NCBI GenBank assembly: GCA_965197525.1
Contig: OZ240211.1
Span: 1,568,001 to 1,632,000, forward strand
Source of the DNA: Nitrosopumilus sp.
GTDB lineage: Archaea > Thermoproteota > Nitrososphaeria > Nitrososphaerales > Nitrosopumilaceae
Direction: 5' to 3'
Length of the DNA stretch: 64,000 bases
Part shown: positions 12,602-43,959 of the stretch, piece after piece
Position numbering within the stretch: position 1 is the first letter of the stretch
Layout of the letters: every line of letters starts with the position of its first letter
The notes under the pieces: model-generated
What the model saw: the letters and a program-made list of their open reading frames with translations, nothing else
The model's database searches: none
Told to the model about the DNA's origin: nothing
Made by a program: the position numbers and the translations under genes

Positions 12602-13561
12602 ATGCTTCCAAAATTTTCTAGCAAGGCATTTTTAGCTCCTATGGCAGGGGTTAGTGATCCTGCCTTGCGGCTACAGTGTAAAATAATGGGAGCTGGATTG
12701 GTGGTTACGGAATTTACTAGTATACACAGTATTGTTGCACGTGAACAGCAACTCGAAGAGATGCAGACAATACAACAATTTATTGAATATTCTGATCAAG
12801 AGCGCCCACTCTCAATCCAATTGTTTGGTTCAAATCTGGCAGCTTTGGAGGAGGCTGCTAAAATTGTAGAACCGCATTTTGATATAATTGACTATAACAT
12901 GGGGTGTCCTGCACCTCATATAACCAGTCAAATGGCAGGAGGGGCACTCTTACAACAGGCTAATCTGACTCGTCAAATATTTTATACTCTTGTAAATGCC
13001 GTAAAGAAACCTGTAACCCTCAAAATTCGTTCCGGTGTAACTAGTGCAAGCAAATTTCTATTTCGAGATATCGCTGAAATTGCAGAAGAAGAAGGAATAC
13101 AAATGATTACACTACATCCCAGAACAGTAAGCCAGGGATATTCTGGCCACGCTGATTGGAAGATGATCAAAGAACTCAAAGAAGTTTCTAGCATCCCGAT
13201 TGTTGGGAATGGTGACATTACTACTCCTGAACATGCTAAAGCTATGATGGATGAAACTAATTGTGATTATGTGATGATAGGACGCGGTGCTATGGGCAAT
13301 CCATTCTTATTTGAGCAGATTAATGACTATCTTGAAACTAACTTTTACACTGAGTACTCGTTTAAAGATAAGTTGAATGCTTTTTTTGACTATCTTCGTC
13401 TTACTAGTCAATACAAGATAAAATTTGCAAATATCAAAGGTCAGGCAATGCGATTTACTAGAGGAGTGCCGGGTGCCTCTAAATTACGTTCACAAATTAC
13501 TGTTTCAGCCAGTGTTGAAGAATTAGAGAAGATTATGACCGATGCATGTTATTTATCTTAG
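12602..13561 (+). CDS. dusB: tRNA-dihydrouridine synthase (Dus family)
   Basis: LAPMAGVSD, QLFGS, NMGCP, KIRSG, HPRT, GNGDI, MIGRGAMGNP; the last G of the stop codon is the first base of the MITE. Confidence 0.93.
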   Translation: MLPKFSSKAFLAPMAGVSDPALRLQCKIMGAGLVVTEFTSIHSIVAREQQLEEMQTIQQFIEYSDQERPLSIQLFGSNLAALEEAAKIVEPHFDIIDYNMGCPAPHITSQMAGGALLQQANLTRQIFYTLVNAVKKPVTLKIRSGVTSASKFLFRDIAEIAEEEGIQMITLHPRTVSQGYSGHADWKMIKELKEVSSIPIVGNGDITTPEHAKAMMDETNCDYVMIGRGAMGNPFLFEQINDYLETNFYTEYSFKDKLNAFFDYLRLTSQYKIKFANIKGQAMRFTRGVPGASKLRSQITVSASVEELEKIMTDACYLS

Positions 13562-13618
13562 GTTCTGTTAATTAGTGGGTTGTTGGAAGGTCAGAACGCC
13601 CGATAAGTTAACAGAACC
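13561..13618. mobile_element. 58-bp MITE-like element with IS6-type ends (copy 1)
   Basis: GGTTCTGTTAA...TTAACAGAACC; flanked by TTATCTTA (13553-13560) and TTATCTTC (13619-13626); core TGTTGGAAGGTCAGA shared with the copies at 38862 and 39236. Confidence 0.75.
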
Positions 13619-13655
13619 TTATCTTCTACTCTGTTCAATATTAGGGAGTTTTCAA

Positions 13656-13780
13656 GAGACTGTAAAGTTAGGGATGTAATTATTACAAGTTTTAAGACTG
13701 TAAAATTCGGGAGGTATATCGTGATCTGTTTTGAGACTGTAAAGTTAGGGAGATGACACGTTGTTTGGCTTGAGACTGTT
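13656..13780 (+). repeat. Subterminal array of 19-bp GAGACTGTAAAGTTAGGGA motifs (left end)
   Basis: Copies at 13656, 13694 (degenerate), 13733 and 13772 (partial); 38-39 bp period. Confidence 0.85.
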
Positions 13781-13832
13781 ACACTGTTAAAAACACGTCT
13801 TCTTTATAATATAGCCTGATGAGTATTATCTT

Positions 13833-14705
13833 ATGAAACAAATTTCTATTATGATATTAGGTATCATAATAACAGGATCTATGTTTACAGTTTATGCTAT
13901 AGATCAGGCAACAGCACAAGAAAAATTAATTCCAGATTGGATAAAAGGCACTGCTAGTTTTTGGATTAATGATGATATCACAGATTCTGAATTTATACAA
14001 GCTATTGAATTTATGGTCAATAATGGAATAATTAAAATTCCAATGATTCAAAATCTTGAAAATGAATTATCAGTATCAAAAAACAAGATTATAGAGTTAG
14101 AAACGAATACATCAGAATTAAAAACATATACTAGCGTATCTAAAACAACAAAAGATTTCTTAACTTTCAGCGATAAGATTTATGAATTTGGGGATGATCG
14201 TGCCAAAATTGAATATGAAACTCTCATTAAATGTAAATCTGTTGATAATAATTTAAAATTTCTTGAATTTACTAAATGGTTATCATATTATACTAACTAT
14301 ACAGATGATTTGACAATACAGGTTGAGGAACTTACAGAATCATTTGAATCTATATCCATCACTGACGTAACACCAGAAGAAAAGGTTATGCTAAAATATC
14401 TATATGATGAAACTAATCTAATAAATGGTATACACTACAGTGAACTTCAATTTTCCATATATGATGAATTATTAACATGTTTAAATGAAGTTGAGAATAA
14501 ATTTCTAAAAAATCCCAATACACTCACAAATCCAACAACACAAACATGTAATTTGTTTTGTGATTCAAGAGGGTATGAACCACAATGGGCTAAATCAATA
14601 AGTGAAGAAACTGCTTTCAACACATGTATTGATACTATTCCATTAGATAATAGCCCAGACTCTTTATGGTGTGATGAGTTCATTGAATATCTAGTGTTAG
14701 GTTAG
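13833..14705 (+). CDS. Secreted/surface protein with thaumarchaeal IPxWIK domain and C-terminal Cys-rich domain
   Basis: Signal peptide; IPDWIKGTASFWINDDITDSEFIQAIEFMVNNGII; C-terminal CNLFCDSRGYEPQWAK...C...WCDE. Confidence 0.8.
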   Translation: MKQISIMILGIIITGSMFTVYAIDQATAQEKLIPDWIKGTASFWINDDITDSEFIQAIEFMVNNGIIKIPMIQNLENELSVSKNKIIELETNTSELKTYTSVSKTTKDFLTFSDKIYEFGDDRAKIEYETLIKCKSVDNNLKFLEFTKWLSYYTNYTDDLTIQVEELTESFESISITDVTPEEKVMLKYLYDETNLINGIHYSELQFSIYDELLTCLNEVENKFLKNPNTLTNPTTQTCNLFCDSRGYEPQWAKSISEETAFNTCIDTIPLDNSPDSLWCDEFIEYLVLG

Positions 14706-14954
14706 ATATCATCCCTTTCATTTTTTAGGATTTTGAAGAAATAATATCACTGTAAATATGAATACTATTCTTGATGCTATTATTCCTATAGTTATCTTGA
14801 CGACCTATATGATGCGTTAGAGTTGTTACAACTTCTTTGAACCAAGTTGAAATATTTACAAAAGTATCATTTTTGATTAACCACAATTTGTTGTTAACAT
14901 TGGTTACTTTACTGAAAATGTCATTTTTCGCTAACTAAAATACTCTAAAATGAT

Positions 14955-15566
14955 TTACTTTGGCGGCCTCTTACCGTCCATATATTCGATACACCAAGAG
15001 TAGTCTCGATCTTCAGTTATTAAGATGTCTAACATACCTCTATCTGAGTCTTCAATATAGGCAAAACATGTAAACTCGATAACACGCTCAGACTGTCCTT
15101 TGGCCCAGTCCGGTTCCCAGTCTCGTATAATTGATGGTACATTTTTCAATGCCTCTTCATACTCTCGTGCTTCTAGCTCTCTCTCTTCTAGCTCTCTCTC
15201 TTCTAGCTCTCTCTCTTCTCGCTCCCGCTCCCGCTCTTGTGCATACTCTTCATCATAAAATGGATATACAATTACTATAATAACAAACAATAACATTATG
15301 ACAATTATTAACAAACCTGCGATCCATGAATTTGATAGTTTGGCAAACCATGATAATCTATAGAATACGTAAGTACTCAATAATGATATGAGCCAAGTGG
15401 TCATCATGAAGACCGACACATAATCTTTTGAATCAAATGTAAAAATATCGGGTTGAATGGAATGTATATGTATTACATTAGACCCCATAACTGTAGCTAC
15501 CGCAAACGCAAGCAGAAATTTCAAAAATCCACTTTGATGTTTTTCTTCTGCTGTATGAGGAAGCAT
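14955..15566 (-). CDS. Membrane protein with Glu/Arg-rich linker and partial Cys-rich domain
   Basis: Three hydrophobic segments; ERELE repeats (15-bp DNA repeats); WEPDWAK...C...YSWCIE. Confidence 0.75.
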   Translation of the reverse strand: MLPHTAEEKHQSGFLKFLLAFAVATVMGSNVIHIHSIQPDIFTFDSKDYVSVFMMTTWLISLLSTYVFYRLSWFAKLSNSWIAGLLIIVIMLLFVIIVIVYPFYDEEYAQEREREREERELEERELEERELEAREYEEALKNVPSIIRDWEPDWAKGQSERVIEFTCFAYIEDSDRGMLDILITEDRDYSWCIEYMDGKRPPK

Positions 15567-15609
15567 AAATCAAAAAAATGTACCAATTATTTAAAAATTT
15601 AGAAGTCAT

Positions 15610-15748
15610 GGTTCTGTTAACTTGATGAGTGGTAGTTTACCATATGATATTATTGACATCAATTAATACTATAACAGGCATAATCCTACATCAGCGTTAT
15701 ACTCATCCCAGTACAACAACACATAACACCCGTCAAGTTAACAGAGCC
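15610..15748. mobile_element. 139-bp MITE-like element with IS6-type 16-bp TIRs
   Basis: GGTTCTGTTAACTTGA ... TCAAGTTAACAGAGCC (15/16 inverted match); no 8-bp TSD. Confidence 0.65.
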
Positions 15749-15875
15749 CATCTTTTTGAAACCTCAAACACTTTTTTGCAATCCATTATCTCACCGTTTA
15801 GGCGTTTCATCTTGTTGCTGTCACGATCTCTCTTCCCTGTAATGTAAACATGTCTAATATAATTTGTCTTCTTTT
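15749..15875 (-). pseudogene. Decayed IS6-like transposase fragment
   Basis: Minus-strand translation ...DSNKMKRLNGEI... resembles the NNKMERxNGE catalytic-Glu region of archaeal IS6-type transposases. Confidence 0.4.
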
Positions 15876-15968
15876 CAAAACTAAAAAACAGTTTTACACA
15901 AAATAATTTTTACGCCATATCCACATTATTAGACAGGACCCAAATCACCCCAAGCGTTTTTAAAAACA

Positions 15969-16199
15969 TTACTTTATCTTTTGTGTCTTCTTTAACAACT
16001 CATGAGTCATTCCAATCATAACAAATGCTCCGCCAAACAACCCGGCTATAATCCCATATAACAAATTGCCTGTCAACCAGTCCACCATGCATATAAATAG
16101 CAGTATACTAACGAACCCACTAACTAACACTATTACTGCAATACCTACTAGGCTTCCAATACTATTAGCTGTATCATCAAAGGCAGGCATGGCAAACAC
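15969..16199 (-). CDS. Small two-TM membrane protein
   Basis: 76 aa with two hydrophobic helices and a basic tail. Confidence 0.5.
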   Translation of the reverse strand: MFAMPAFDDTANSIGSLVGIAVIVLVSGFVSILLFICMVDWLTGNLLYGIIAGLFGGAFVMIGMTHELLKKTQKIK

Positions 16200-16283
16200 T
16201 GGAATTGATGCAATATTAAAGTATGAGACATAAACAAAAAGCGTTTCTTTGTTGATTAAAAGTGCTAAATAGTATAGATCAAG

Positions 16284-17312
16284 ATGTATTCTATCAGAAA
16301 AATGAAACTAATTGTCATTGTAATAATTGGGTTAATTATTGTAATCGGAGTACCGATATCACTGATATCATTTTTCATCTATGATGCAGGGCTTAAGGCC
16401 GAGAAGAAAGAGGCAGAATGGCAGGAAAGGGTTGAGGCACATAGGCTTCAAGAAGAGAAACAAGCAGCAGAGAGGTTAGAGGCAGAGGCTGTAGCAGAGA
16501 GGCAAGAGAGGTTAGAGGCAGAGGCTGTAGCAGAGAGGATAAAGGTAGAAAAAGCAAGAGAAAGTGAATCAATCTGTCATGATGAAATAATTAAAGAAAG
16601 AATAGAACAGGCTATCGTTCTTAGTAATCGATTCTATCAAGCGTGTGAACCTGTCCAATATGGATCATATAATGACTTTGTTATATTTTCTGACAAAATG
16701 CAGACTGTTGAAAATCAGATAAATCTTCAAACAAGTTTTCAAGCAATAAATGAAAGCATACTGGACTTGATTATCACAGTTGAAAACAACTGTCAGTATA
16801 CAGAAATACGTGACATAGGTATTGATCTAAAATATGACTTTATTGTAATGAGTTTATGCTTTGAAGAAGTGTATGAGCAGTTTGGAGAATTTCCAGGTAT
16901 GGAATTAGGGGTATGGGATAACGATCATAATCCTCAACATAATACAAACAATAGCCAATGTCATATATTTTGTGATTCAAGAGGATATGAACCCGATTGG
17001 ATAATATATCAAGAAGATCTAGATGATCTTCTAACAACGTGTGTAGATGATGTACCGTTGGATAATAGCCGAGATTCGTTATGGTGTGATGAATTATATG
17101 AATATGCACTTTCGCCAGGCGGAGTTTCCAGCGATTCTAATAGCCAATGTCATATATTTTGTGATATTTACGGATATGAGCCACAATGGGCCAAATCAAT
17201 GGATGTTTATCAAGCAGCTGGAGTATGTATGTCAATCTTTAATAATTCTGAACAGGCAAGTGATGATGATCTATCATGGTGTTATGAACTTGCAGGATAT
17301 CTAGTGGAATGA
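16284..17312 (+). CDS. Membrane-anchored protein with coiled coil and two C-terminal Cys-rich domains
   Basis: N-terminal TM; ERLEAEAVAER duplicated; two copies of QCHIFCDxxGYEPxW...C...WCxE. Confidence 0.8.
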   Translation: MYSIRKMKLIVIVIIGLIIVIGVPISLISFFIYDAGLKAEKKEAEWQERVEAHRLQEEKQAAERLEAEAVAERQERLEAEAVAERIKVEKARESESICHDEIIKERIEQAIVLSNRFYQACEPVQYGSYNDFVIFSDKMQTVENQINLQTSFQAINESILDLIITVENNCQYTEIRDIGIDLKYDFIVMSLCFEEVYEQFGEFPGMELGVWDNDHNPQHNTNNSQCHIFCDSRGYEPDWIIYQEDLDDLLTTCVDDVPLDNSRDSLWCDELYEYALSPGGVSSDSNSQCHIFCDIYGYEPQWAKSMDVYQAAGVCMSIFNNSEQASDDDLSWCYELAGYLVE

Positions 17313-17441
17313 TGTTAATCAAAAATTTAGGCTGTGATTTTGTAAAACGTTTTACAGTGTAAAACATCAACAAATGCGTTTTTTTGTTGATAATTGTCAA
17401 ACAACTCCATAAAAAGTGGAATTAAACAAATTACATAATAA

Positions 17442-17489
17442 TACACTGTTCCAAATTAGAGATATTTCCAGACACTGTTTAATTAGGGA
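17442..17489 (+). repeat. Solo degenerate copy of the 48-bp TIR
   Basis: TACACTGTTCCAAATTAGAGATATTTCCAGACACTGTTTAATTAGGGA; 37/48 ungapped identity to the left TIR. Confidence 0.7.
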
Positions 17490-17566
17490 CATATACACGG
17501 TCTATTTTAAAATCATTAAAGAAAGCCAAACTAATAACAAGATAAAACATGTTATAAAAAATAGAT

Positions 17567-17833
17567 ATGACGCGCAAACTGATACTCGCACTGCCAATCG
17601 GCATCCTGGTTTGCGCGGCTGCGATATTCTCGATTGAGGAACCGTCTCCAAATCCTTATCTGATGGAACCGGGAAGTTATGCAGGGCTACAATGTTGTAA
17701 CAATCATGAATGCTACGTCGCTCATGACATAGAATGGATGTCCCTTGAAACACATGAGTGTATTCCAAGAGCAGGTGCGGACAAACAACCCATACCCGAC
17801 GAATGGATTTGGCGTGACGATCTTTTAAAATAA
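17567..17833 (+). CDS. Small secreted Cys-containing protein
   Basis: 88 aa; hydrophobic N-terminus; CCNNHEC...C. Confidence 0.55.
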   Translation: MTRKLILALPIGILVCAAAIFSIEEPSPNPYLMEPGSYAGLQCCNNHECYVAHDIEWMSLETHECIPRAGADKQPIPDEWIWRDDLLK

Positions 17834-17856
17834 TATCTGAAAAATTATAGATTCTA

Positions 17857-18098
17857 TCAGATATTCCCCATCACATACTCTAACGCAACTCTAAACTCGT
17901 CTAGGGTTATCTGTTTTTTTATTACCAGTGGTGCAAGATCAGTCATGACCCAGGCAGGTATGTCTTCTCCCATGTGACTCAGGCCCATGGCATCCAGCAG
18001 CTGGCCGTCGTCTGCCACCTCGGACTCAAATCCAGACCACGCGCGCAGTACGGACAATGCGCGGTCATAATCTGAGTCATCATCAAAAGTCTCAATCC
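17857..18098 (-). pseudogene. Orphan C-terminal fragment of a large Nitrosopumilaceae surface protein
   Basis: RIETFDDDSDYDRALSVLRAWSGFE...DIPAWVMTDLAPLVIKKQITLDEFRVALEYV; in-frame TAG immediately upstream and no start or signal peptide. Confidence 0.6.
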
Positions 18099-18125
18099 GC
18101 TATTGGCTTTTCCTAAACTTCTTTT

Positions 18126-19550
18126 TTATTCCTTATTTGTGCAAAGAATATTTTGTGCATTGGAAACAATTCTATTTGCTTCTTCTTGGCAGTATTCCAA
18201 TAAAGATTTGTCTAAAATCTGGATGAAATCGGACTTGGACATATCCATAGTAACTGATACAACAAGTGCTATCCTTAGAATTTCCAATAATTCTTTGATA
18301 AAAGCATCCGGTCCACCATATTTTTTTAGTTTTTCCTCGTCCTTAGATCCAATACAATCGCCATGAACAAATTTACTTCTTATAGTATAGGCATCTTTTA
18401 TCTTGTCTCTTACATTCAGTTGATCTTTACCAAGAAACTTCATAAGGCTTGCGACTCTTAATGACAGCCTGAATGATAACTCCCCACTATCTTGTTGGAG
18501 AAATATACTTTCAAGCCCCATTACAGCATCAGCAATTTTTCGATCTGTAGAACTATTTTTCAGGCAGTCTACATATCTGTTGTAGGCTATTGTAGCAAAT
18601 TTATCTTTTTTTGATAAAGTGTTAGATATTTTTTTAGCATTGTCTTCAAGTGAAGAGAAAAATTTTTTCAAGCATTCTTTATCTGATTGTCTAACGAGGT
18701 AAGTGTGGGCTGCACGTGAATTATCTAACGTTTCTATGTTCATTCCCCCACCCCCAAACCAAGGATCCATTATAACAGAATGCATTTTAAAACGAATATG
18801 TCTGATACTTCCTACACGGAATAATCTTAATATGGATATTATATGTTTAATTCTATTTATTAATTCTATATCAGTTTTGGCATACATCTCCACATCAATA
18901 ATGGCAGTAGGATATTGTTTAGAAACATCACAATCCGCAGGATATGCGGGAAAGTTTTCATTAATGTCCTTTTCAGAAGTTTGCCGAATTTTTATTCCAC
19001 ATCCTAGATTAATAGACGGTTCTTGTAATATTATACCAATCAGTTCTACAGTAGCATAACATGGAAACTTCTCTCCTTTAAGATGTTTTAGTGCATCAGA
19101 TACAATTTTTTTAATTTCTTCACTAGTCCATTCATGCTTGAATGCAGATAGCATAAAAAGTCGTAAAGATACATCAACTGTGTTTTTTGGTAGTTGATAG
19201 TTGTCCAAAATTAATTTTTCAAGCTCTAACACTCGTGGTGATTTTAAAAAATGCTGTGTAACAGTCATATGTAAATCCGACCAATATAAAATAGGATTTT
19301 CTTCTTGTGTCATATTTGTAATTGTTATACCATTATTATGGACACCAGAATCATCATATGTAAAATTACTTACAGTCCATCGATATTGGGAATCCATACT
19401 GTTTGTTTTCAAAGTATCATCGTTTTTGCCATTTTTGATAATCCCAACTATTTCTGTTAAGATTTCAACAAATAATTGATGAACTAGATTGTCCACAGAT
19501 GAAGAAGCCATATGATAAAGTGTTGTATGCTTTACATATATAGAAATCAT
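18126..19550 (-). CDS. ApeA-like HEPN domain protein (candidate antiviral RNase)
   Basis: C-terminal GLESIF...ELSFRLSLRVA...YTIRSKFVHG with an Rx4H motif; probable start ATG 19511. Confidence 0.75.
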   Translation of the reverse strand: MISIYVKHTTLYHMASSSVDNLVHQLFVEILTEIVGIIKNGKNDDTLKTNSMDSQYRWTVSNFTYDDSGVHNNGITITNMTQEENPILYWSDLHMTVTQHFLKSPRVLELEKLILDNYQLPKNTVDVSLRLFMLSAFKHEWTSEEIKKIVSDALKHLKGEKFPCYATVELIGIILQEPSINLGCGIKIRQTSEKDINENFPAYPADCDVSKQYPTAIIDVEMYAKTDIELINRIKHIISILRLFRVGSIRHIRFKMHSVIMDPWFGGGGMNIETLDNSRAAHTYLVRQSDKECLKKFFSSLEDNAKKISNTLSKKDKFATIAYNRYVDCLKNSSTDRKIADAVMGLESIFLQQDSGELSFRLSLRVASLMKFLGKDQLNVRDKIKDAYTIRSKFVHGDCIGSKDEEKLKKYGGPDAFIKELLEILRIALVVSVTMDMSKSDFIQILDKSLLEYCQEEANRIVSNAQNILCTNKE

Positions 19551-19834
19551 TCTTTTCTACTGTTCTGTTAACTTGTTGAGGTATAATTCCTCGTGTTAAC
19601 TGTAGAAGGGTGTTTTTTATAGTCAATTGCGAATCGCATATAACTTGTCATTTAAATCTGCATACGGATTGTTAATCTGCCCTTCCGACATACTCTTTTT
19701 TTCTAATTTATATTCAATATTATCTAGATTCTTGATCACATCCATTATACCTTGAATTAATCAATAATGTTTGCAACGGTATTTCATAATCTCTTGCGAC
19801 TAATAATTATATGTGGTTTTATTGACGGATTTTT

Positions 19835-20998
19835 GTGTTTGGAAAAAACCTAGATGATGTAACTTATGATGACATAATCAAACTGAAAGAAAGAAAAATA
19901 GATGAAAGTGACATTTTAGATTACAAGATAGACTTTCAAAAAGAGGATGAGATCATAAAACATGTTTGTGCCTTGGCTAACACTCGTGGAGGATACTTGA
20001 TCTTTGGAATAAAAGCATCAAAGGATGGCGGACATCCAACAGAGATTAGAGGAATGGAGAATAACAAGATACATAAAGAAAAAATTGAAAATTTAATGCT
20101 GTCTAACATAGTTCCACGTTTGGACATCAAAATAAAAACAGTTGCAGTACCAGATACAGAAAATTCAATTTTGCTTGTACAAGTTCCTGACAGTTACAAC
20201 AAACCACACTATAATCAGAAGAACAATAAATTCTACAAACGATACAACTTTCAATCTAATGAAATGACAGAACAAGAAATTGCAGATTCCTACAGGAGAC
20301 GTTTTTCATCACATGATCAAGTTGAGCAATATGTGAATCGTTTGTTTAGAAAACAAAAGACGTCTTCCCTTGTTGAGAGCATCATAGTTATTCCGTCAAA
20401 TATAGAACATAGATTAATCGACACATTTGACCGCACAAAGTATGAATGGTTGGGAGATATTTCGCTAAAACATAGTTGGGGACCGCGTGCAAATCCAAAT
20501 AACTTTTTTCCGTCTAGTCTACGACCTTTTGCCGATGGACTTTATAGTAAGAATGGAGAAACACAAAGAACAGAGATTCATAGAAACGGCTGCATTTTTT
20601 ATACATCTGTCCATGAACAGTTACTCTATAATAATTTGAAAGCCAGATCTAATGACAACGATTATTATAATTTACTGTCTGGAGTATATGCAGTTAAAAC
20701 AATGCATACACTCCAAGCCGCATATCAGATCATGTCTCATTATAACTACCTCGGCGAGGTAAAGATTATTGCGAGAATTGTTTGTCCTCCTCACACTCAA
20801 TTACTTTTTAAGGATAATAGGCTTATACGCCTCTCTCAAAACTTAATCATTCACATAGAAAAGATGTTCTCATTACAACACATCAAAACCAATTATCAAG
20901 AGATTACCGCAGATGTTATGCATGAAGTAGTAAACCATTTTGGAGTAGAAAGATGTGAGTTATTTGATACAGAGGGACAATGGATAGAAGATTGCTAA
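19835..20998 (+). CDS. Schlafen AlbA_2 domain protein
   Basis: IDESDILDYK, VCALANTRGGYLIFGIK, KPH...FYKRYNFQS motifs. Confidence 0.85.
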   Translation: MFGKNLDDVTYDDIIKLKERKIDESDILDYKIDFQKEDEIIKHVCALANTRGGYLIFGIKASKDGGHPTEIRGMENNKIHKEKIENLMLSNIVPRLDIKIKTVAVPDTENSILLVQVPDSYNKPHYNQKNNKFYKRYNFQSNEMTEQEIADSYRRRFSSHDQVEQYVNRLFRKQKTSSLVESIIVIPSNIEHRLIDTFDRTKYEWLGDISLKHSWGPRANPNNFFPSSLRPFADGLYSKNGETQRTEIHRNGCIFYTSVHEQLLYNNLKARSNDNDYYNLLSGVYAVKTMHTLQAAYQIMSHYNYLGEVKIIARIVCPPHTQLLFKDNRLIRLSQNLIIHIEKMFSLQHIKTNYQEITADVMHEVVNHFGVERCELFDTEGQWIEDC

Positions 20999-21051
20999 TG
21001 AATTTTTGACAGGTCAATATGATTACTGACTATCTCTTGAGATTTTAAAAA

Positions 21052-21339
21052 TTAAGGTCTAACGTGATTTAACACTACTTTTTTACCATGTAGATCTTGG
21101 TTATGACAAAAATCAACCTGAAAATTAAAACCACAGTTAACACATAGAAAACCTGGCGTTGAGTTAGGTAATGTGTCGGCACATTCTGCACCGCATAGTA
21201 AACAATTCATCCCATGTGGGTCATACCATACCTCTGTTTTGCCGTCATCAGATACTTGATACCAATATCCTTGAGGAACTTCAAGTTGTCGTTCATGTCT
21301 TGTGACACCTTTTAGTGTCTTGTAGGCTGTAACCTCCAT
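21052..21339 (-). CDS. Small Zn-ribbon protein
   Basis: CLLCGAEC...CVNCG. Confidence 0.55.
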   Translation of the reverse strand: MEVTAYKTLKGVTRHERQLEVPQGYWYQVSDDGKTEVWYDPHGMNCLLCGAECADTLPNSTPGFLCVNCGFNFQVDFCHNQDLHGKKVVLNHVRP

Positions 21340-21460
21340 AGTATATTTTAGTGTAGATAGGGTTTAAAAGTTTGTTATAAAATTAGATATGATTAATTTT
21401 TGTTCTTTGTTAATTCATACTCACTAAGAATGGAACTTTGTAAAAATATTTCAAAGAACA

Positions 21461-21800: not shown

Positions 21801-21806
21801 CCACTG

Positions 21807-31174: not shown

Positions 31175-31176
31175 GT

Positions 31177-35900: not shown

Positions 35901-36312
35901 AGACGAAGGATCACCTAGGTTCGTTGCACGGTCAGTAGAGGGTATAGATAATACCAGTGCCGTATGTTTGGCCAGAGTAAATAACATAGACAGTTCTTTG
36001 GGTTGGTTTATAGACATTAGTCTGAGGGATCAGAATAACGATGTAATTGTTCAGACCCTGTCAGGTGTCGGGCCGCCAACAGTCAATTATTGGGTATCAG
36101 AAGATGTAACAGAGGATGGCATCATACAGGGTAAGAACTCTATGTATATGGGCAGGCAGAATTTTGTAATCGCAAAGTTGGTTTACTATGATGCAGACCC
36201 TGACAGGAATTATCAGTGCTTGTATGACGTGGGAGTGGATAGGAGAACATCAACAGGTGGGGCAGTAACCATAGACAATGTTGTCAGTGCTTTCGGCTAT
36301 ATCAGAAACTGA
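32959..36312 (+). CDS. Large surface protein with 14 LVIVD-like repeats (2 x 7-blade beta-propeller) and a C-terminal unique region
   Basis: 14 copies of YALV...GVQI(I/V)(D/N); repeats 7 and 14 end in IIDLG; probable start ATG 32959 followed by a signal peptide. Confidence 0.88.
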   Translation: MSLCGGGGRASRNTILLASTILLCVVMIGISPAAYGTLSDPVPVSSFEDGDTVNGKTFDELLGARGLTTIEIDSKIYALVTSGVDFGVQIIDISDPANPAPVSSFDNGDTVNGKTYDELDAPRQIASVKIGSGTYALVANNMDGVQIIDITDPANPEPVTSFDDGDTVNGKTFDELNGAYGITTIKIGSSTYALVTAVDDNGVQIIDISDPANPAPVSSFDDGDTVNGKTYDELEDPYDITTVKIGSKTYALVAAHGDDGVQIIDISDPANPAPVSSFDDGDTVGTKTFDELAGAYGITTVKIGSKTYALVATATDDGVQIIDISDPANPAPVSSFDDGDSVIVGSFERPFRELESGFGITTLKFGQGVYALVAAHVDDGVQIIDITNPANPVPVSSVDDFGINGELDGAYTVTTVKIDSKVYALVTGFNDAGVQIIDLGEEPPEGHPLLSPKPVTSFDDGDYVGNKQFKELNGARGITTIEIGSKVYALVAAAVDNGVQIIDVTNPTNPVPVSSVNDGNTRGGVQLQELKGANGITTIEIASKIYALVTAGGDNGVQIIDITNPASIKGVSSFDDGDTVGTETFDELTTPRNIDVFKLGFKLYAIVASSGDNGVQIIDISSPQNPLPVSSFDDGDAVGTETFSELLQAFDVTTIEIDSTMYALVAAFADDGVQIINITDPANPAPVSDFDDGDIVRVGSLDLTFDELDGAYSITTVTIDSKVYALVVARNDNGVQIVDISDPENPAPVSSFDHGDTVNGKVYDGLNRPTSITTLTFEGGVYALVTAINSDGVQIVDISDPANPAPVSSFADSDIVNGKTFDNLGDPYDITTVMIGSKVYALVAAHYSDGVQIIDLGGPKVEVQGKIADKGDTYSSVCKAVIKDINPDVKWSAVISVHGFTPGEFIRDTITLAADESYAESPSPNYHFVIKKSDAYDGSVTVQFVERGINPSHSGTCTIDIMSYDALFVERIPVPVITLDEDEGSPRFVARSVEGIDNTSAVCLARVNNIDSSLGWFIDISLRDQNNDVIVQTLSGVGPPTVNYWVSEDVTEDGIIQGKNSMYMGRQNFVIAKLVYYDADPDRNYQCLYDVGVDRRTSTGGAVTIDNVVSAFGYIRN
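32971..32982 (+). repeat. G12 homopolymer in the 5' coding region
   Basis: Twelve consecutive G encoding GGGG, four codons after the probable start. Confidence 0.85.
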
Positions 36313-36403
36313 CATCTTGTAATGTGTAACAATGGATATCTAGGGAATTATATAGTCAAGTAAGGTACCACTTTTTGCATACTTTTCCGTATGATTCTAT
36401 CCC

Positions 36404-37518
36404 TCATTTATTCCCACCCTCCAATTTTAGGACGAATTCATTGGGAGTGAGATATCCCAATGCGGAGTGAATCCTGTCCTTGTTGTAATCTACAAATGCT
36501 TTTGCTAAAACGACCTCTGCGTCTTGGAGGCGTGCAAACTCGTGCGGCCAGACATATTCCCTCTTGAGTGTTTCATGGAAAGACTCCACATGTCCGTTTT
36601 GCTCTGGAGTATTCTTCCAGATAAACTCGTGTCTTATTCCCAGTGTCTGCATGGATTTCTTGAACTCACGACTGCTGCTGTACTGCGTATCGTTGTCAGT
36701 TCTAAGCCTTAGATGTGAGATATCTTTTACAGACAATACTGCCTTTAGCACAGATTGAACGGTTGTGTGTGCCGTAGCTGCAGCATCAAAGATGTATGAT
36801 ATCCATTCCCTGGTAAACACATCTATGACGTTAAAGCAGTAACACCATCAGTCCATGCCAATGGATGTATGTCATGTCTGTCTCCCAAAGCTGGTTGGGT
36901 GCGTCAGGCTTGAACTTTCTGCGTCTTGATGTACGAATTATGCCGTTTTTGCTATTTTGAGGCTTATTCCGGCCTATTTTTCTATATATGCGCTGTATTT
37001 TTTTACGATTTGTAGGAATGTTCGTCTCTCTTGCAACCTGTGCTGTCATGCGTCTGGTTTCGTACGTGGGCCGCTTGGAGGACATCTTTTTTACCTTGTC
37101 TGTGACCTCTGCATTTATCAGAACATCTCTTGGTTTTTTAGTATAATACCAAGCATGTTTGGACATCCAGCAATACTGCAAGGCTTTGTTCAGACTCATT
37201 TCTTTGCTTGTTTCACGTACTGCCTGTATCCTCATCGATTTGTCCCATCCAAAGTTTTTTTTAAAACGTCGTTGGCTATGGTGATCTCACCTATTATACG
37301 CTTGAGATTCTCTCTACCTCCTTTGTATGATTTTTGGTCTTGTCTTCTTTGTTTAGGAGGAAGGCCTCCTTGCCTCCCTGCAGAAACTTGTCTTTCCAAT
37401 CTTGGAATGTAGTTGGAGATATGTTGTGTTTGCGACACAATTCGGCAGCAGATATACTGGTATTGATAAATTCCATTACTATTATTGCCTTGTCTTGGGG
37501 GTTATGCTTCTTGTTCAT
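36404..37518 (-). pseudogene. IS3-family transposase, frameshifted
   Basis: OrfA HTH (ISAAELCRKHNISPTTFQDWK) and rve motifs WETDMTY, LRTDN, NGHVESFHETLKRE split across four frames. Confidence 0.85.
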
Positions 37519-37765
37519 ACACTTCCTCTAACCTCCTGCTCCAAAAAGTATACGGATTTGATCGGTTTCATTATAGAGGGGTCTGCACCAGATTCCTTTA
37601 AAAAAATTGGATCTGTCCGGTTCTAACCTTCTGAAAGAGCCAAAATTAACCATCCGGTTCTAATCGTCCTGTATAGCAAAGGCTATACAAAATTATACAC
37701 TGTTCAATCTTAATGTCATTTGTCTGCTTTTCTACACTGTTCATTTAGGCGGATGGACCGTAAAG

Positions 37766-37990
37766 TTAGGGTGATGAGGGTTTGCATCGTTTACAATCAC
37801 GGTATTTCATAGAATGTTCTCTAGCTAATCTTTGAGCTATGTTTGTAGCGGTTTGAAGGGTTGGTGCAGTATGCCAATCTGAATTTTCAGCTAAAGGTTT
37901 TCTACATGTATAGTAATGACACTCTATATCATGAATCTTGATATCTGAGGCTTTTGGGATGTTGTGATAAATTGCAAATCTATCTATCAT
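37766..37990 (-). CDS. Small Cys/His hypothetical protein
   Basis: 74 aa; IHDIECH...DCKRC. Confidence 0.5.
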   Translation of the reverse strand: MIDRFAIYHNIPKASDIKIHDIECHYYTCRKPLAENSDWHTAPTLQTATNIAQRLAREHSMKYRDCKRCKPSSP

Positions 37991-38025
37991 AAAATTATGA
38001 TGTTGAACTTGTTAAAAAATTAAGC

Positions 38026-38860
38026 GACTAGCTTCAACCAGCAACTATCTTTTCCGTTTGACGGCCAGCTAAACCCATGAAGTCTGGGAATGTCGTTTAT
38101 CTCACGCCAGACATGATGTCTCATGTCAATCCAATTTTTAGGACCATAATGGTTACATTGATGGAATAGAAAGGCAGACCCATCATGCGGATGGCTATAG
38201 CCATCATTACAGAATGGGAGGATGCCAAAAAGGGCGTCTAGGCGTGATTCGTGGTTCGATGTAAAGGGTAAAGTTACCCCGGGACGGGCGCAACAGATCA
38301 AAAAGGTTCCTGACGGCACAGGATGCGTGATGCTTGATGAGGATATGACGTCAGGTGGCAGGAGAGGAATCCCAAGGAGTTTGAAGATGCGTACCACCAG
38401 CGTAGTATAGTGGAATCGGTGTTCTCTTCATTCAAGCACTGGTTTACTGCGGTTGTTCGTGCAAAGAAGATGGCAACGCAGAGACTGCAGCTGCTCTCCG
38501 GTGCATCTGTTACAACCTGCTGTCATAGTGGAACGACGTAAAAAACACGTGGTGTGTCTAGCGTATGCTGTACAACCATGCAACGTTTTGGTAGATACAC
38601 CTCATCATATCCTGCTGCTAGAAAATTATACAGGGAATCAAAAGCAATAAAGTCAGATTGACATCTAATAGGTTTGAAAAAATAAGATTTGGACAACGCC
38701 GACTAGCTTCAACCAGCAACTATCTTTTCCGTTTGACGGCCAGCTAAACCCATGAAGTCTGGGAATGTCGTTTATCTCACGCCAGACTGATTTGTCAATC
38801 CAATTTTTAGGAGTTACATTGATGGAATCACCCTCATTGGCTATAGTTACTTTCTTGATT
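38026..38860 (-). pseudogene. Two copies of an IS6-like transposase C-terminal tail flanking an IS5/IS4-type remnant
   Basis: About 87-bp direct repeat (38026-38112 and about 38700-38786) encoding VWREINDIPRLHGFSWPSNGKDSCWLKLV, homologous to the C-terminus of the 28215 transposase; plus-strand YHQRSIVESVFSSFK at about 38390-38435. Confidence 0.75.
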
Positions 38861-38861
38861 T

Positions 38862-38919
38862 GGTTCTGTAAAGTTAACAGGTGTTGGAAGGTCAGAGTAC
38901 TCGATGGGTTAACAGAATC
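38862..38919. mobile_element. 58-bp MITE-like element (copy 2)
   Basis: GGTTCTGTAAAGTTAACAGGTGTTGGAAGGTCAGAGTACTCGATGGGTTAACAGAATC; sits where the IS6 tail fragment breaks off. Confidence 0.75.
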
Positions 38920-39235
38920 GTTATTTACAGTTAATTACGGTTTTTCTGTAAATAACTCACAAGGACGTGGTGGAGAACCATCATCCATCTCTGGCTTGAT
39001 TTTATTTAATGCATCCTTTGCCTCTTGTGGTAGTTTTTCGTATTTGAATATGCCGAACTACAGACCTTGAAGAAGCTGGGGTGCAGTAAGTGTTTTGTTC
39101 GTACAATGTGGGGCAAACGTGTTGTTGAATGTTTGAGGATTATTTGTACTCATACAAATATTATCTCACAAGTTCTTTATACGTCTTTTTTACTGTGCTG
39201 GACCAGCTGCATCGTTATATTTACTGTTGCAGGAT

Positions 39236-39293
39236 GGTTCTGTAAAGTTAACGGGTGTTGGAAGGTCAGAGTACTAGACGAGTTAACAGAACC
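39236..39293. mobile_element. 58-bp MITE-like element (copy 3)
   Basis: GGTTCTGTAAAGTTAACGGGTGTTGGAAGGTCAGAGTACTAGACGAGTTAACAGAACC. Confidence 0.75.
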
Positions 39294-39343
39294 CAGTATT
39301 GTAATTATTTAACTACATTGTTTTGATTAAAGAAAAAATGAGG

Positions 39344-40642
39344 CTAGTTGATCGTAAACACAATACTGGTAAAATCCTCATTGGCATAATTGCCAGCAAT
39401 ATGCATCGATGACCAGTTGATCTGATGCTTTACAAAAATCTGATATTCGCCAGCAGGCGTATCTTCAGGTATCATATATGTCAAAGAAAACGTACTATCA
39501 TCAATATCTGTAAGACAGTATGGATATCCATAACGTTCACTATTGGTTCGCATTGTCAAACCATCTCCACTATAGTCACTACCTGATGCCCAGCATATAA
39601 TTTGGCCGGGAGCCTGAGCGCCCAAGATATTCTTACCCGGAAAGTTAACATGAACGTTAGTGTTACTATAGTAAGGGCCAAATGATAAAGATATCTGTCT
39701 CCTCTCTACCTGACCAGCATCAGGATCAAAAAATATACCTGTTTGCAATGCTTCAAAATGTTCATACAATTTTCCAGTAATTGTAATAGTATCCCCCGGA
39801 CTAAATGCTGTACCGTTTACCCTGACAAAAGATTCAGGCAGAGGCGCATCAGGCATAGCTAGAAATATCGCTGCACCTAGGTAATTATCCTCAGGATAAT
39901 CAGCCCATGGATCTATCCACAGCTTAACCTGAAGTTGTGATAATGCAAGCCGATCTTTAAACGCTGTCATATTTGTATTTGCTGCATCTAGCTTGGCTTG
40001 CATCTGTGCCATTTCTGCATTTGCTGCATCTAGCTTGGCTTGCATCTGTGCCATTTCTGCATTTGCTGCATCTAGCTTGGCTTGCATCTGTGCCATTTCT
40101 GCATTTGCTGCATCTAGCTTGGCTTGCATCTGTGCCATTTCTGCAGCATGATCTTCAGGTGTTGGTTCCGGTTCTGGTTCAGGTGTTGGTTCAGGTGTTG
40201 GTTCCGGTATAGTTAAACCTGTACTAATGAATACACTATCAGTCCAAGGTCCAGGGGGCGCTTCATTGTATCTTGGCCTAATCTTAATCTTATACAGTGT
40301 GTCTTCTTCCAAACCCTCTATGGTGTATGATGATTCTGTAGGATAGGCATTGTTACCATTAGCTAACCTGTAACTATGGTAGTTTTCTTCTGTTGCTTCT
40401 ATCCATGTTACCCTGTAATCTTTTGGCTCATTAACTGGCGCTTCCCATTGAATACTAATTGTGTTTGTTGTACTAGAAAAATTTGCACTCTTAATAATGA
40501 CGTGTTCGTTTATTCGATTTACATCCACGTCTTGATAGGTTACTGTTTCAGCGTATACATATCCAGTTATTGAAATACTGATAATTGCAACAAGCATAGA
40601 TGCAAGTAGTATTTTTGCAGGTTTGCCCATCATCGTCTTCAC
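39344..40642 (-). CDS. Secreted fibronectin type III protein with PE linker and tandem coiled-coil repeat
   Basis: Signal peptide; ISIQWEAP...YRVTW...YTIEGLEEDTLYKIKIRPRY; PEPTPE linker; AEMAQMQAKLDAAN x4. Confidence 0.85.
   Translation of the reverse strand: MKTMMGKPAKILLASMLVAIISISITGYVYAETVTYQDVDVNRINEHVIIKSANFSSTTNTISIQWEAPVNEPKDYRVTWIEATEENYHSYRLANGNNAYPTESSYTIEGLEEDTLYKIKIRPRYNEAPPGPWTDSVFISTGLTIPEPTPEPTPEPEPEPTPEDHAAEMAQMQAKLDAANAEMAQMQAKLDAANAEMAQMQAKLDAANAEMAQMQAKLDAANTNMTAFKDRLALSQLQVKLWIDPWADYPEDNYLGAAIFLAMPDAPLPESFVRVNGTAFSPGDTITITGKLYEHFEALQTGIFFDPDAGQVERRQISLSFGPYYSNTNVHVNFPGKNILGAQAPGQIICWASGSDYSGDGLTMRTNSERYGYPYCLTDIDDSTFSLTYMIPEDTPAGEYQIFVKHQINWSSMHIAGNYANEDFTSIVFTIN
39977..40144. 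repeat. Four exact 42-bp tandem repeats
   Basis: atttgctgcatctagcttggcttgcatctgtgccatttctgc x4. Confidence 0.93.
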
Positions 40643-40644
40643 GG

Positions 40645-42360
40645 TTAATTCACTGGCAGCAATACATCAAATGATGCCACAATACGATCATCTATAGTAG
40701 CACCACGTACACCGTCACCGTACGTATATCTTTCATATACCTGCGAGACTACCTCATGTGTGCCAACAGTCCAGTCTTCAGTAATGGTAAACTCTGCACT
40801 AAAAGTATAATCATCAGGGTTGAATACACAGGACTCTACGCCATGGTAACCATCATGTCCCCGATTGGTAAAATGAGTGTGTGTGATATCATCATGATCG
40901 TGACTAATCCTGTCGTCTACGCTATAATCATAGCCACATAATATCATGCTTTCAGTAGTAAAGACAGTTACGCCCCAAGCATGTAGTACAGGTTCTATGT
41001 CTATTCCATCAGCATCTTGTCTTGTTGTATTCAATTGTGGAAACATCTGGCCTGTAACCAGTATTGTATCTCCTGCACGTGCAGACGTGGTATTAAGCGT
41101 AATATGTGATTGCGGTTGTGGGGGTTCTATGTCTTCTGGTGTTGTTTCTTCTTCTTCTACCTGATCAGATGCAGTAGCTATGATGCTTCCTGTCATCCAA
41201 GGGTGCAGTATGCAAGTATATTGTTGAGTACCTATAGTAATAGGTGTCCATAGGTATGTCTCTCCTGGAAACATTAGACGACTATCAAACACTGAACCCA
41301 TGACATTAGTAAGGTCTGAAGCCTCTCCTGACATCCATCTATGAATAGTGTTGTCTGTATTTTTGAATGTAACAGTATTGTTAAGAGGAATAGTAAGCTC
41401 GTTTGGAGTGCTGCATCCGTCTACTGTATCTTCACATCCTGGTACACTAGAGCCTGCAACAGGTTCTATGATGTATTGTGGTAGTGGAAGAGGCTTACTT
41501 GTAAAAACATCGGCCCATTGTCCAGGGAGAGTTCTAATTATAAGATCATCAGTCCACGGTCCAGGGGGGCCACCGTTGTATCTAGGGCGTATTTTTATCT
41601 TATATTCTGTATCTTCTTCTAAATCTGTGATGGTATATTGTGAACGTATAGGAAAAGCATTATGGTCTAAGTTTCTAAAAGTTTTGAATTTTTCTTCAGT
41701 TGTTTCTACAAACGCTATTCTGTAATCTTTTGGATCTCCTTCAGTTGGTGGTTGCCAGTCCACACTAATACTATGATCAGTGGCAACCATAGTTACACCA
41801 TGTATAGTATCACCTGAAAGTGGTGCTGGTATTGGTGTTGATACTCCTGACGATACAGATGTTTTGTTTCCTATGACTGGATCTTGTGTTGTTTCTGGAT
41901 CTGGTACTTCGTATTGTATTATTTCTGGATCTGGCACTGGTTCTGGTTCACTTGGCAGTTGACCCGTAGTAATTATCATATCAAAAGTCCATATTGTTGA
42001 ACCGCTGTCATATAGTGCCTTAATTCTTACCTTGTATTCTGTATTTTCTTCAAGGCCTGTAATGGTGTAGAATGAATCTGTAGTGACTGCCTTCTGATTC
42101 AAGATATCAGATGATGTATAATCCTCATTAGATGGGGCCCATGCTACTTTATAACTTGTTGGTTCTTCCTCAGGTGCTTCCCATTCAAGATCAATTGTAT
42201 CTATAGTACTGGTAAGAGTTGCAGTGTATACAAGTCGTTCCAAACCCGTATTTACTGGGTTGTAAAACACCGTTTCGTCTGCATGGGCATAGACAGCTAT
42301 TGAGATACTCATAACTGCCACAAGCATAGATGCAAACAGCATAGTTGTTTTACTTGTCAA
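40645..42360 (-). CDS. Secreted protein with 2x FnIII and a type-1 (blue) copper cupredoxin domain
   Basis: Two FnIII domains; NTDNTIH...YTCILHPWMTG supplies the His/Cys/His/Met ligands. Confidence 0.85.
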   Translation of the reverse strand: MTSKTTMLFASMLVAVMSISIAVYAHADETVFYNPVNTGLERLVYTATLTSTIDTIDLEWEAPEEEPTSYKVAWAPSNEDYTSSDILNQKAVTTDSFYTITGLEENTEYKVRIKALYDSGSTIWTFDMIITTGQLPSEPEPVPDPEIIQYEVPDPETTQDPVIGNKTSVSSGVSTPIPAPLSGDTIHGVTMVATDHSISVDWQPPTEGDPKDYRIAFVETTEEKFKTFRNLDHNAFPIRSQYTITDLEEDTEYKIKIRPRYNGGPPGPWTDDLIIRTLPGQWADVFTSKPLPLPQYIIEPVAGSSVPGCEDTVDGCSTPNELTIPLNNTVTFKNTDNTIHRWMSGEASDLTNVMGSVFDSRLMFPGETYLWTPITIGTQQYTCILHPWMTGSIIATASDQVEEEETTPEDIEPPQPQSHITLNTTSARAGDTILVTGQMFPQLNTTRQDADGIDIEPVLHAWGVTVFTTESMILCGYDYSVDDRISHDHDDITHTHFTNRGHDGYHGVESCVFNPDDYTFSAEFTITEDWTVGTHEVVSQVYERYTYGDGVRGATIDDRIVASFDVLLPVN

Positions 42361-42403
42361 TGTATTTTTGTAATTAGGCCAGTATATGAATATAGTTATT
42401 GTC

Positions 42404-42432
42404 GGTTCTGTGAAGTTAACGGGTGCTGAAAG
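42404..42432 (+). repeat. Left half of the 58-bp MITE family
   Basis: GGTTCTGTGAAGTTAACGGGTGCTGAAAG. Confidence 0.65.
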
Positions 42433-42475
42433 AGATCACTGTTAACTTACCGTCACTTGAGATCTGGTTCGAAAG

Positions 42476-43820
42476 TGCTCTGTCGGATAACCCTGCCTAA
42501 AATTTCCTGAAACTGCAGTTGTGTAAACAAAATTTGAATGACAGCACAACAAACTATGTCTAATGGTATAAAATAGTAGGCGTACCCACACATCTCTAAC
42601 TTGCAAGAGAAAGATGGGCAGGCGTGCCAAATAACAAAACAACAATCAGGTTTATTATCTTTCGCACTGTTAGTAGAATCTCATATCGTAGGTGGTATGC
42701 TTTCATGACGCTTGATTCTGAAAAATATATCAATGTGGGCAGGCTAATGGTACTTGGACCCGACCCTAGATGGAAGGAAGATGTAAAGAAGGCCAACTAT
42801 CGCAAAAATGGGTATAAACCCGTTTATGTACAATGACGCGTTGTTTGCAGCGCTTGGTGTAATCAAAACCATTGCAGGACTGTCATACAAGAATCTAGAG
42901 GGATTATGTAAAGAAGCTCTCGGAGATGCAAACGCACCTGATCTCCATTATCCATGCAAGGATTACTAGTCTTGACATATCATTTGATGATTCCAATCGT
43001 GCCAATATCAAAACTCATGATGGTAAGACGATACGATTTGCCATAGATTCCACTGGAATGACTCCCTACAAACGTGGTGAGTCCATACACGAAAAATGGC
43101 ACGTCAAGCGAGGGTTCGTCAAACTGCACGTAATAGTGGATGAGTCTGACGGTACGGTGCTGTCAGCAAAACTGACAGATGATGACAGGGGTAGTGGGGA
43201 CACTTTACAGCTAGAAGAGCTGCTCGATGATGCACTAGAAAAGATTAAACCACAACAGACAGGTATCACGGAATGTGTAATTCAAAACTCAGACAAAGAA
43301 CAGCAACATCAAGATGTGGAATTGTTAGGAGATGATGGAGCATACGGTTCCCGGAAGAACGTGGCTGCGTGCAAAAAACGCAACGTATCTCCAATACTCA
43401 GACTTGCTGTGACATCAACTACGAGAGGAGATGGATACGGTGATGACTGGAGCAATCTTGTAAGAGAGCAATTTGGCTGCAAGACAAAAGGCGGCAGGAC
43501 GTACACCAACAGTCTAACCAAAAACGAAAAGTATGACAACCAGAAAAAATGGATGAAGGATACAAAGTATGGTAAGCGCTGGCGTGTAGAGTGTGTGTTC
43601 TCCTCCATCAAGCGCATCCAAGGTGAGGCGTTGTGGTCCCGCAAGGTACCGTACATGAAGCAGGAGATAAGACTTAGGATGTGGGTGCATAACGTGATCA
43701 CTAAGATGGGGGTGTACATATTTGACTGTCTATGATGGTCAATACGGAACATGGAAATCAAAACCGTCGCCTCCGTCACCCTTGTTGGGATCATGGGAGG
43801 GAAAGTTATCCGACAGAGCA
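42476..43820 (+). mobile_element. IS5-family element with frameshifted transposase
   Basis: Perfect 16-bp TIR TGCTCTGTCGGATAAC (42476-42491) / GTTATCCGACAGAGCA (43805-43820); AIDSTG, FVKLH, DDGAY and YGKRWRVECVFSSIK motifs; N-terminus broken across 42624-42836 and 42926-43735. Confidence 0.87.
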
Positions 43821-43959
43821 TTATCTTCAAGAACTTTAAATATATTTTACATTTGTCAATAAAATCATTAAAATTATTGCCAAATTTTTAAACATATGAG
43901 TTATTCTTATATATATTCAAATGCATATTTAATACATGAAGATCGAGGTTGAGTCTTAA

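Follow-up and report, generated by a model that had tools for sequence, protein, structure and literature searches.

Archaeal genomic islands, those of Thaumarchaeota included, are usually ascribed to tyrosine integrases or casposons. Here we describe an island of ~30 kb in Nitrosopumilus sp. that we think was probably built purely by DDE transposons stacked in one target-site duplication (TSD). The stretch of DNA that we analysed, called the window below, comprises 64,000 nt of contig OZ240211.1 (positions 1,568,001-1,632,000) in a genome of 2.21 Mb. The island lies in it between dus, a dihydrouridine synthase gene, and an Lrp/AsnC ligand-domain gene (lrp), and is divided by copies of a single 8-mer into a 58-bp miniature inverted-repeat transposable element (MITE; E1), a 17.65-kb cargo transposon (E2) and a segment whose 2 ends come from different insertion sequences (ISs; E3).

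Among the systems described so far, the IS6 family is close to E2 in its transposase. IS6 elements transpose via cointegrates, have inverted repeats (IRs) of 15-40 bp with a GG tip and a cTGTt motif, are 0.7-1.5 kb long and carry 1 open reading frame (ORF) of ~230-260 aa; IS26 is known to insert preferentially beside a resident IS26. E2 resembles IS6/IS26 in having a DDE transposase nearest to IS6 and IS1, an 8-bp TSD, and tips that read GG..CTGTT in E1-type elements and ..CTCTGTTCAA in E2 itself. Unlike the compact IS6 elements, however, E2 has a TA tip and a 460-aa transposase with extra N-terminal Zn modules, its group comprises elements of 2-17.7 kb that can carry cargo, and its terminal inverted repeats (TIRs) of at least 51 nt are multi-site, with 3-4 binding-site repeats. 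While the targeted mode of IS26 makes no new TSD, here the TSD is re-duplicated and the neighbours are heterologous. Tn7 chooses its target by means of a dedicated selector protein and a conserved attachment (att) site, and it shows target immunity. Its arrays at attTn7 also grow without an integrase, by successive insertions beside the 3' end of a conserved gene, but the elements described here have no selector and use variable sites, and what they do is seemingly the opposite of immunity. IS30, IS911 and IS21 target IRs and move by copy-out/paste-in via circle or dimer junctions with 2-4 bp spacers; insertion beside a resident IR and abutted ends with a spacer of TSD length are features that our locus shares with them. 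To our knowledge, such an IR-targeting copy-out/paste-in mechanism has not been described for IS1/IS6-like or IS5 elements, or in archaea.

In Proteobacteria, dusA islands reportedly enter the 5' end of dusA by means of a tyrosine integrase and an att site, as Farrugia et al. are said to have found in 2015. An original prediction on this DNA had contrasted our locus with these islands, and the contrast is valid: both lie next to a dihydrouridine synthase gene, but ours abuts the 3' stop codon of an archaeal Dus, consists of DDE transposons with TSDs, and shows no sign of dus recognition. The resemblance is nominal, and the link to dus looks coincidental. Tandems that share a TSD have been recognised as the signature of repeated insertion for the P-element, hobo, R1 and bacterial IS dimers (McGurk & Barbash, doi 10.1101/158386). 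Those cases involve one element and a preferred motif, whereas 3 different elements from 2 IS families, and no conserved motif, are found here. In the same archaeal group as ours, tandem casposons of Nitrosopumilus ef-2 place 2 TIR/TSD elements in one target, and casposons use a Cas1 integrase and a sequence-specific target (PMC6563490); our locus is likewise a tandem of TIR/TSD elements, but one of DDE transposons and with no conserved target motif. The IS-like transposons of Thaumarchaeota were described as elements of only 1-2 genes (PMC6563490). What is new at our locus is the combination of heterologous elements of 2 IS families, large IS1/IS6-like archaeal cargo transposons, and recurrence at unrelated sites.

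The main features of the locus, in window coordinates, are as follows.

12602..13561, + strand: dus (dihydrouridine synthase), Pfam Dus 1.6e-70
13553..13560, + strand: 8-mer copy a, TTATCTTA
13561..13618, no strand: E1, 58-bp MITE with perfect 11-bp IRs (GGTTCTGTTAA)
13619..13626, + strand: 8-mer copy b, TTATCTTC
13627..31280, + strand: E2, cargo transposon of 17,654 bp with 51-nt TIRs and an 8-bp TSD
28215..29597, + strand: E2 transposase, 460 aa, Pfam DDE_Tnp_IS240 2.5e-15
29674..30624, - strand: conserved partner ORF, 316 aa, convergent with the transposase, no family match
31281..31288, + strand: 8-mer copy c, TTATCTTC
31289..32838, + strand: left end of E3, a 137-bp IS5-type MITE ("M3") split by an IS110, IR AACTCTGTTTYCCAATT
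32839..42475, no strand: interior of E3, with surface-protein genes and IS and MITE pieces
42476..43820, + strand: IS5-family IS, 1345 bp long, perfect 16-bp IRs (TGCTCTGTCGGATAAC)
43821..43828, + strand: 8-mer copy d, TTATCTTC, directly followed by the native lrp upstream region
43960..44193, + strand: Lrp/AsnC ligand-domain gene, 79 aa in relatives

All 4 copies of the 8-mer are exactly where the original prediction had placed them, and each directly abuts the terminus of an element. For E1 these termini are GGTTCTGT at 13561 and its complement ending at 13618, for E2 they are TACTCTGT at 13627 and its complement ending at 31280, and for the right side of E3 the terminus is TGCTCTGT, with its complement ending at 43820. 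Most of the termini quoted earlier are literal; the exception is 31289-31296, which actually reads AACTCTGA, this end being split by the IS110. Because TTATCTT[AC] has a frequency of only ~6.9e-5 per position per strand in the genome, 3 extra flush copies are not attributable to chance, in line with the earlier expectation. The dus stop codon TAG consists of TA from copy a and the first G of E1, and in the alignment Dus terminates at the codon that its relatives also use. Searching 40 relatives with the Dus protein yielded 19 same-genus loci, and in 15 of these the dus stop directly adjoins lrp with its upstream region, which is the empty site that had been anticipated. In the other 4, two contigs end too early, G010 is without lrp, and in G017 the spacer is occupied by an unrelated 2.2-kb TIR element ~20 bp further downstream. 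Homology to relatives restarts exactly at 43821/43829. Since dus and lrp are directly joined in relatives, 13561-43820 is an insertion, ~30.3 kb of strain-specific DNA. In six-frame searches of the whole genome, the only Phage_integrase (PF00589) match was at C1:1848724, outside the window, and Resolvase (PF00239) gave zero matches. The island therefore has no tyrosine or serine integrase, as had been predicted, and these family searches found no recombinase in or beside it of the kind that marks an att/integrase island.

E2 is a genuine 17.65-kb transposon. Its 51-nt TIRs are 96% complementary, its GC content is 35.4%, each end has 3-4 subterminal repeats of ~19-22 bp (13656-13779 and 31177-31251), and a perfect 8-bp TSD, TTATCTTC on both sides, has the length known from IS6. 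In the transposase, an N-terminal CxC..CxH (SWIM-like) motif and a Zn ribbon precede the DDE domain, which scores 57 with Pfam DDE_Tnp_IS240 (cut-off 27). With the NCBIfam models the scores are 105.1 bits for IS6 (NF033587; cut-off 125) and 67 bits for IS1 (cut-off 100), so that from its sequence we class the enzyme as IS1/IS6-like, with IS6 and IS1 as nearest families and below both curated cut-offs. Homologues number 308, and their named sources are Nitrosopumilus, Nitrosotalea and Nitrososphaera. Paralogous transposases in this genome, ~30% identical, lie within 2-5 kb elements with GGTTCTGT tips, and a homologue of the partner ORF (48% identical) adjoins a paralogous transposase at C1:583878-584813. 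E1 is a member of a MITE family with the same IS6-like tips (GGTTCTGT ends); it has sister copies within E3 (38862-38919 and 39236-39293) and a related MITE within E2 (15610-15748). The E1/E2 group shows the cTGTt motif of IS6, and the E1-type elements also have its GG tips.

The ends of E3 do not belong to this group. On the left, M3 is interrupted by an IS110-family IS (~31294-32711, recombinase gene 31426-32580) that has 3 other full copies in the genome. The recombinase matches NCBIfam IS110 (NF033542) at 7.4e-68 with 229 bits against a cut-off of 140, and the 4 full copies begin and finish at identical bases, as befits a family with a DEDD recombinase, no TIRs and a sequence-specific target. 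Excising this IS together with its TG core restores AACTCTGTTTCCC at the left end of E3. M3 has 6 other copies in the genome, the intact ones at C1:827065 and C1:2176442 being flanked by the 8-bp TSDs GTAACTAT and CAAAACCA, and its autonomous relative is an IS5-family IS, "ISx", with the IR AACTCTGTTTCCTAATTA and the TSD ATGTAAAC. On the right, the terminus of E3 is the right IR of the 1345-bp IS, whose IR partner lies 1.3 kb upstream (42476). This IS belongs to the IS5 family by its short IRs and by its transposase (Pfam DDE_Tnp_1 7e-14, 52.5 bits against a cut-off of 23; NCBIfam IS5 4e-27; IS5_2 95 against 140, under its cut-off), which is 30% identical to that of ISx and whose frame is apparently frameshifted (~42706-43735). 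It has no TSD of its own (left flank TTCGAAAG, right flank TTATCTTC), and it cuts off an IS6-like left end at 42475. Between the two ends lie the following features.

32890-36312: LVIVD-repeat surface protein
36364-37590: IS3-family IS
~38029-38292 and ~38704-38871: E2-like transposase remnants
39344-42360, - strand: two fn3 proteins
42404-42475: truncated IS6-like left end

Apart from IS, MITE and low-complexity pieces, nothing homologous to this interior was found at the DNA level in 60 genomes of the genus. Both borders of E3 carry a perfect 8-bp direct repeat, possibly a 9-bp one (TTATCTTCA), and since the repeat is perfect on both sides, a TSD-generating event brought the segment in. The simplest reading is that E3 is a unit with hybrid ends, formed by the IR of M3 and the IR of a second IS5-family IS. 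We also considered TTATTGTC, which lies to the left of the truncated IS6-like end (42404) and is identical at 6 of 8 positions, as a fifth, decayed TSD, but rejected it, as the segment on its left side does not end in a transposon tip there.

The arrangement is not confined to this locus. In a scan of 151 genomes of the genus, we looked for E2-type ends followed by 9-15 nt and CTGK and obtained 12 matches, 9 of them at exactly 12 nt, that is, an 8-bp spacer plus a 4-nt tip; the other 6 spacings had 3 matches combined. With ~98 E2-type ends in the scanned genomes, ~0.8 would be expected by chance at any one spacing. Among the 9 matches, 2 represent one junction on both strands, and another 2 come from an outer flank that is orthologous between G070 and G092. 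A second tip can be recognised at the distinct junctions of G110, G007, G070, G156 and this window; the junction of G054 is a possible further case, and the spacer in G150 is 9 bp. G070 amounts to a replicate of the island: AAGATTTG, a 15.7-kb E2-like element, AAGATTTG, a 17.7-kb E2-like element and AAGATTTG again, the two elements having differing TIRs and separate transposases, with an uninterrupted paralogous copy of the target 4 kb away. In G110, an IS6-type right end is followed by TTTGATAG, a 4.3-kb E2-like element and TTTGATAG. Different ends spaced by 8 bp are also found in G007, in G156 and on metagenome contig L059, where an E2-like right end, ATAATTTA and a degenerate E2-like left end succeed each other. 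In our window E2 is abutted at both ends, with E1 as its left neighbour and M3 as its right one. The original observation is confirmed and is more general than first seen; the stacked architecture also occurs in other Nitrosopumilus-like genomes, at unrelated sites.

The copies of the 8-mer also bear on the order of events. The majority of 17 aligned relatives end Dus at the codon used here. TTATCTTA followed by AAGAAC gives a TAA stop at that codon, whereas TTATCTTC would lengthen Dus by 11 codons. If A were the ancestral eighth base, a single A-to-C change would suffice, in the right copy, which is non-coding, between the insertion of E1 and those of E2 and E3; if it were C, 2 changes would be needed, the stop being lost and then regained. 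A is therefore probably ancestral, and the C-to-A change that was earlier proposed to have created the dus stop probably ran in the opposite direction. E1 would then probably be the oldest element.

We suggest the following scheme for the growth of the island. The first element would have entered the short stretch that separates the stop codon of dus from the promoter of lrp, and later elements would have inserted flush to the tip of a resident one. One of the staggered cuts would fall on the bond between tip and flank, the same bond that the transposase normally cleaves, and the other 8 bp away, so that the TSD of the resident would be duplicated again. At the right tip of a resident, the incoming 3'-OH would attack the same phosphodiester that the transposase cleaves there, so a transposase bound to this tip, or nicking it, could define the target. 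Such tip-defined targeting fits the data, and we infer that resident tips act as a beacon for new insertions. Taking the evidence together, we consider it reasonably probable that the island consists of 3 DDE insertions stacked in one 8-bp sequence, the later ones abutting the tip of a resident. The original prediction likewise envisaged successive insertions, and its integrase-free, DDE-type model with the same 8 bp duplicated each time stands, while the shared family and target specificity that it assumed are not supported. We advance more tentatively, as an idea with somewhat less than even chances, the general rule that archaeal IS1/IS6-like cargo transposons (2-18 kb, with multi-site TIRs and a Zn-finger transposase) target the tips of resident transposons and that islands grow by re-duplication of the TSD. 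If resident tips do attract insertions, this would explain how cargo, which in relatives includes TIR, SIR2, Mrr, NERD and helicase genes, clusters without att sites. For ammonia-oxidising archaea (AOA), it would also be a general way of building accessory or defence islands without an integrase, functionally the reverse of target immunity, and it would yield a rule of target selection that can be tested in a transposase family so far uncharacterised.

Several observations weigh against this scheme. Kin genomes are not independent, and G070 and G092 apparently share one orthologous insertion. Only ~6% of the E2-type ends are abutted, so the preference is partial. Looser tip-to-tip scans of this genome and of 81 genus genomes stayed at background, and a scan from IS5-type ends showed no enrichment, although the insertion of E3 used ends of this type. 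Neither an exact-protein look-up of Dus nor a metagenome scan with a 20-mer from the dus 3' end found a strain in an intermediate state. Finally, because the ends of E3 are from different IS5-family elements, whose tips share only CTCTGT, its mobilisation as one unit can be no more than suggested.

There is another possible history of E3, which we regard as rather unlikely: E3 might not have arrived independently as a third, hybrid-ended insertion. The right end that it first had might have been lost by an intramolecular adjacent deletion from the IS at 42476-43820 to the old tip, or the segment might have been exchanged by recombination between IS copies. The missing TSD of this IS, the IS6-like left end that is truncated at 42475 with its remainder gone, and the density of IS elements in the region would all suit such a history. 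However, the deletion would have to stop precisely at the former bond between tip and TSD, and the direct repeat is perfect at both borders. Deletion or exchange alters the history of E3 only and leaves the count of TSD copies as it is.

The repeated use of one target could also stem from the site itself. The 8 bp might be the only ones tolerated by selection between the dus stop and the lrp TATA box, or a local structure might draw any transposase with an 8-bp stagger. E1 folds as a DNA hairpin of -12.1 kcal/mol whose base is at the junction, a TATA-like TTTAAATA begins 7 bp past the 8-mer, the insertion of G017 is also in the dus-lrp spacer, and 2 unrelated element families are present at the site. 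Yet more than 17 kb of neutral DNA was on offer after the first insertion and the same bonds were reused, and the same architecture is seen at unrelated sites with unrelated 8-mers (G070, G110, G007, G156 and L059). We hold an intrinsic hot spot combined with selection to be unlikely.

The original prediction attributed the 4 flush copies to related DDE transposases with the same target, and one could suppose that TTATCTTC, or the 3' end of dus, serves these as a specific attachment site, as attTn7 serves Tn7. Four flush copies of one 8-mer beside a conserved gene end, and the CTGT common to all tips, may give this impression. The transposases are not of one kind, however: E1 and E2 are IS1/IS6-like, while both ends of E3 are IS5-family IRs and not IS6-like. 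Moreover, the TSDs of the same families elsewhere are unrelated. In this genome, IS6-like paralogous elements have 2 clean 8-bp TSDs, CTATTGTG and TTTAATAG; in another metagenome, where the transposase next to an E2-type right end is 96% identical to that of E2, the flank of this end is GCGGTCGC, and 2 more distant E2-type copies have TAGTTATA and ATAATTTA as flanks. TSDs of 8 bp are made by both families, IS6-like and IS5-type ISx/M3. Similar ends with random flanks had been named beforehand as an observation that would speak against specificity for the 8-mer, and they are found with CTATTGTG, TTTAATAG, GTAACTAT, CAAAACCA, ATGTAAAC and GCGGTCGC. No family member elsewhere occupies the same target, all other TSDs being unrelated and the dus-lrp spacers of relatives being empty or, in G017, the only one occupied among the 19, hit elsewhere by an unrelated element. 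Since the TSDs elsewhere are unrelated, neither the 8-mer nor dus is a target of the family. With no selector protein or integrase evident either, the idea of a specific attachment site is largely refuted, and we give it very little chance.

That the 8-mers are crossover cores of a trans-acting site-specific recombinase, with the inverted tips as its binding arms as in lox or dif, is hardly credible and was rejected: the internal junctions do resemble inverted arms around an 8-bp spacer, but the outer junctions have no such arms, the genome has one tyrosine recombinase and no serine recombinase, and the tips are TIRs of DDE-transposase elements from families with 8-bp TSDs at many unrelated sites.

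As for its cargo, E2 encodes a Schlafen AlbA_2 protein (19835-20998) that also matches HEPN weakly; PADLOC gave zero matches on ten E2 ORFs. The transposases on the metagenome contigs L056-L059 are 79-96% identical to that of E2, and the cargo of the family there comprises TIR-domain, Mrr_cat, Fic/TPR, NERD and SIR2_2 proteins and SNF2/ResIII helicases. The E2 family may be a vehicle for defence genes in AOA. A solo E2-like left end lies inside E2 (window 17442-17510). The 17.7-kb element of G070 (L067:98-17796) looks as if 14 kb of cargo and, at the far side, a solo right end had been added to a 3.6-kb autonomous IS, whose transposase is just inside an internal right end at 3728; this suggests that cargo transposons arise when an IS pairs with a distant copy of its end. 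Just inside the right TIR of E2, a 98-bp direct duplication (99% identical; 30462-30559 and 31080-31177), unusually long for a TSD, surrounds a 520-bp insert that includes an IS5-type ISx fragment (30724-31084). In 2 independent cases (C1:825074-825350 and L056:10840-10985), an E2-like right end is located directly inside the end module, ~145 bp long, of a second E2-like element that is oriented the same way; this suggests that one element nested into the other at the inner edge of the array bound by the transposase.

Some candidates that came up in the scans proved to be of another nature. Those in G002 and G009, from the loose scans, are coding sequence or ambiguous. Back-to-back TACACTGTTCAA tips on 43 metagenome contigs, 45 of the 46 junctions having an 8-nt spacer, were rejected as a hairpin repeat and not tandem transposons. 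This repeat (L073-L115) is abundant on GC-richer contigs, has a 13-bp stem including TACACTGTTCAA and a nearly constant 8-nt loop, CACGGAMG, and is at times tandem with a period of 116-132 bp; its stem matches the E2-family tip, but the element is apparently unrelated. On L055 (G070:C1, ~2016429), a MITE of the GGTTCTGT type, ~320 bp long and flanked by an imperfect 8-bp TSD (TCATAAAG and TCATAACA), lies exactly 8 bp past an IS5-type right end, adjacent to the presumed TSD and not within it.

Of additional note, 2 IS110-type insertions are found at the same position of the M3/ISx IR, one at 31294-32711 of the window and the other, a related IS110-like end, at C1:1256292 in another M3 copy. Upstream of the IS110 recombinase gene, TTGGGAAAC is the reverse complement of the right target flank GTTTCCCAA, which suggests that the IS110 element could be an RNA-guided IS aimed at the ends of other transposons. 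Beyond the island, a 1.3-kb IS at 44194-45494, with at least 6 other copies of 93-95% identity, replaces the last 3 Lrp codons (GQQ) with a 38-aa extension.

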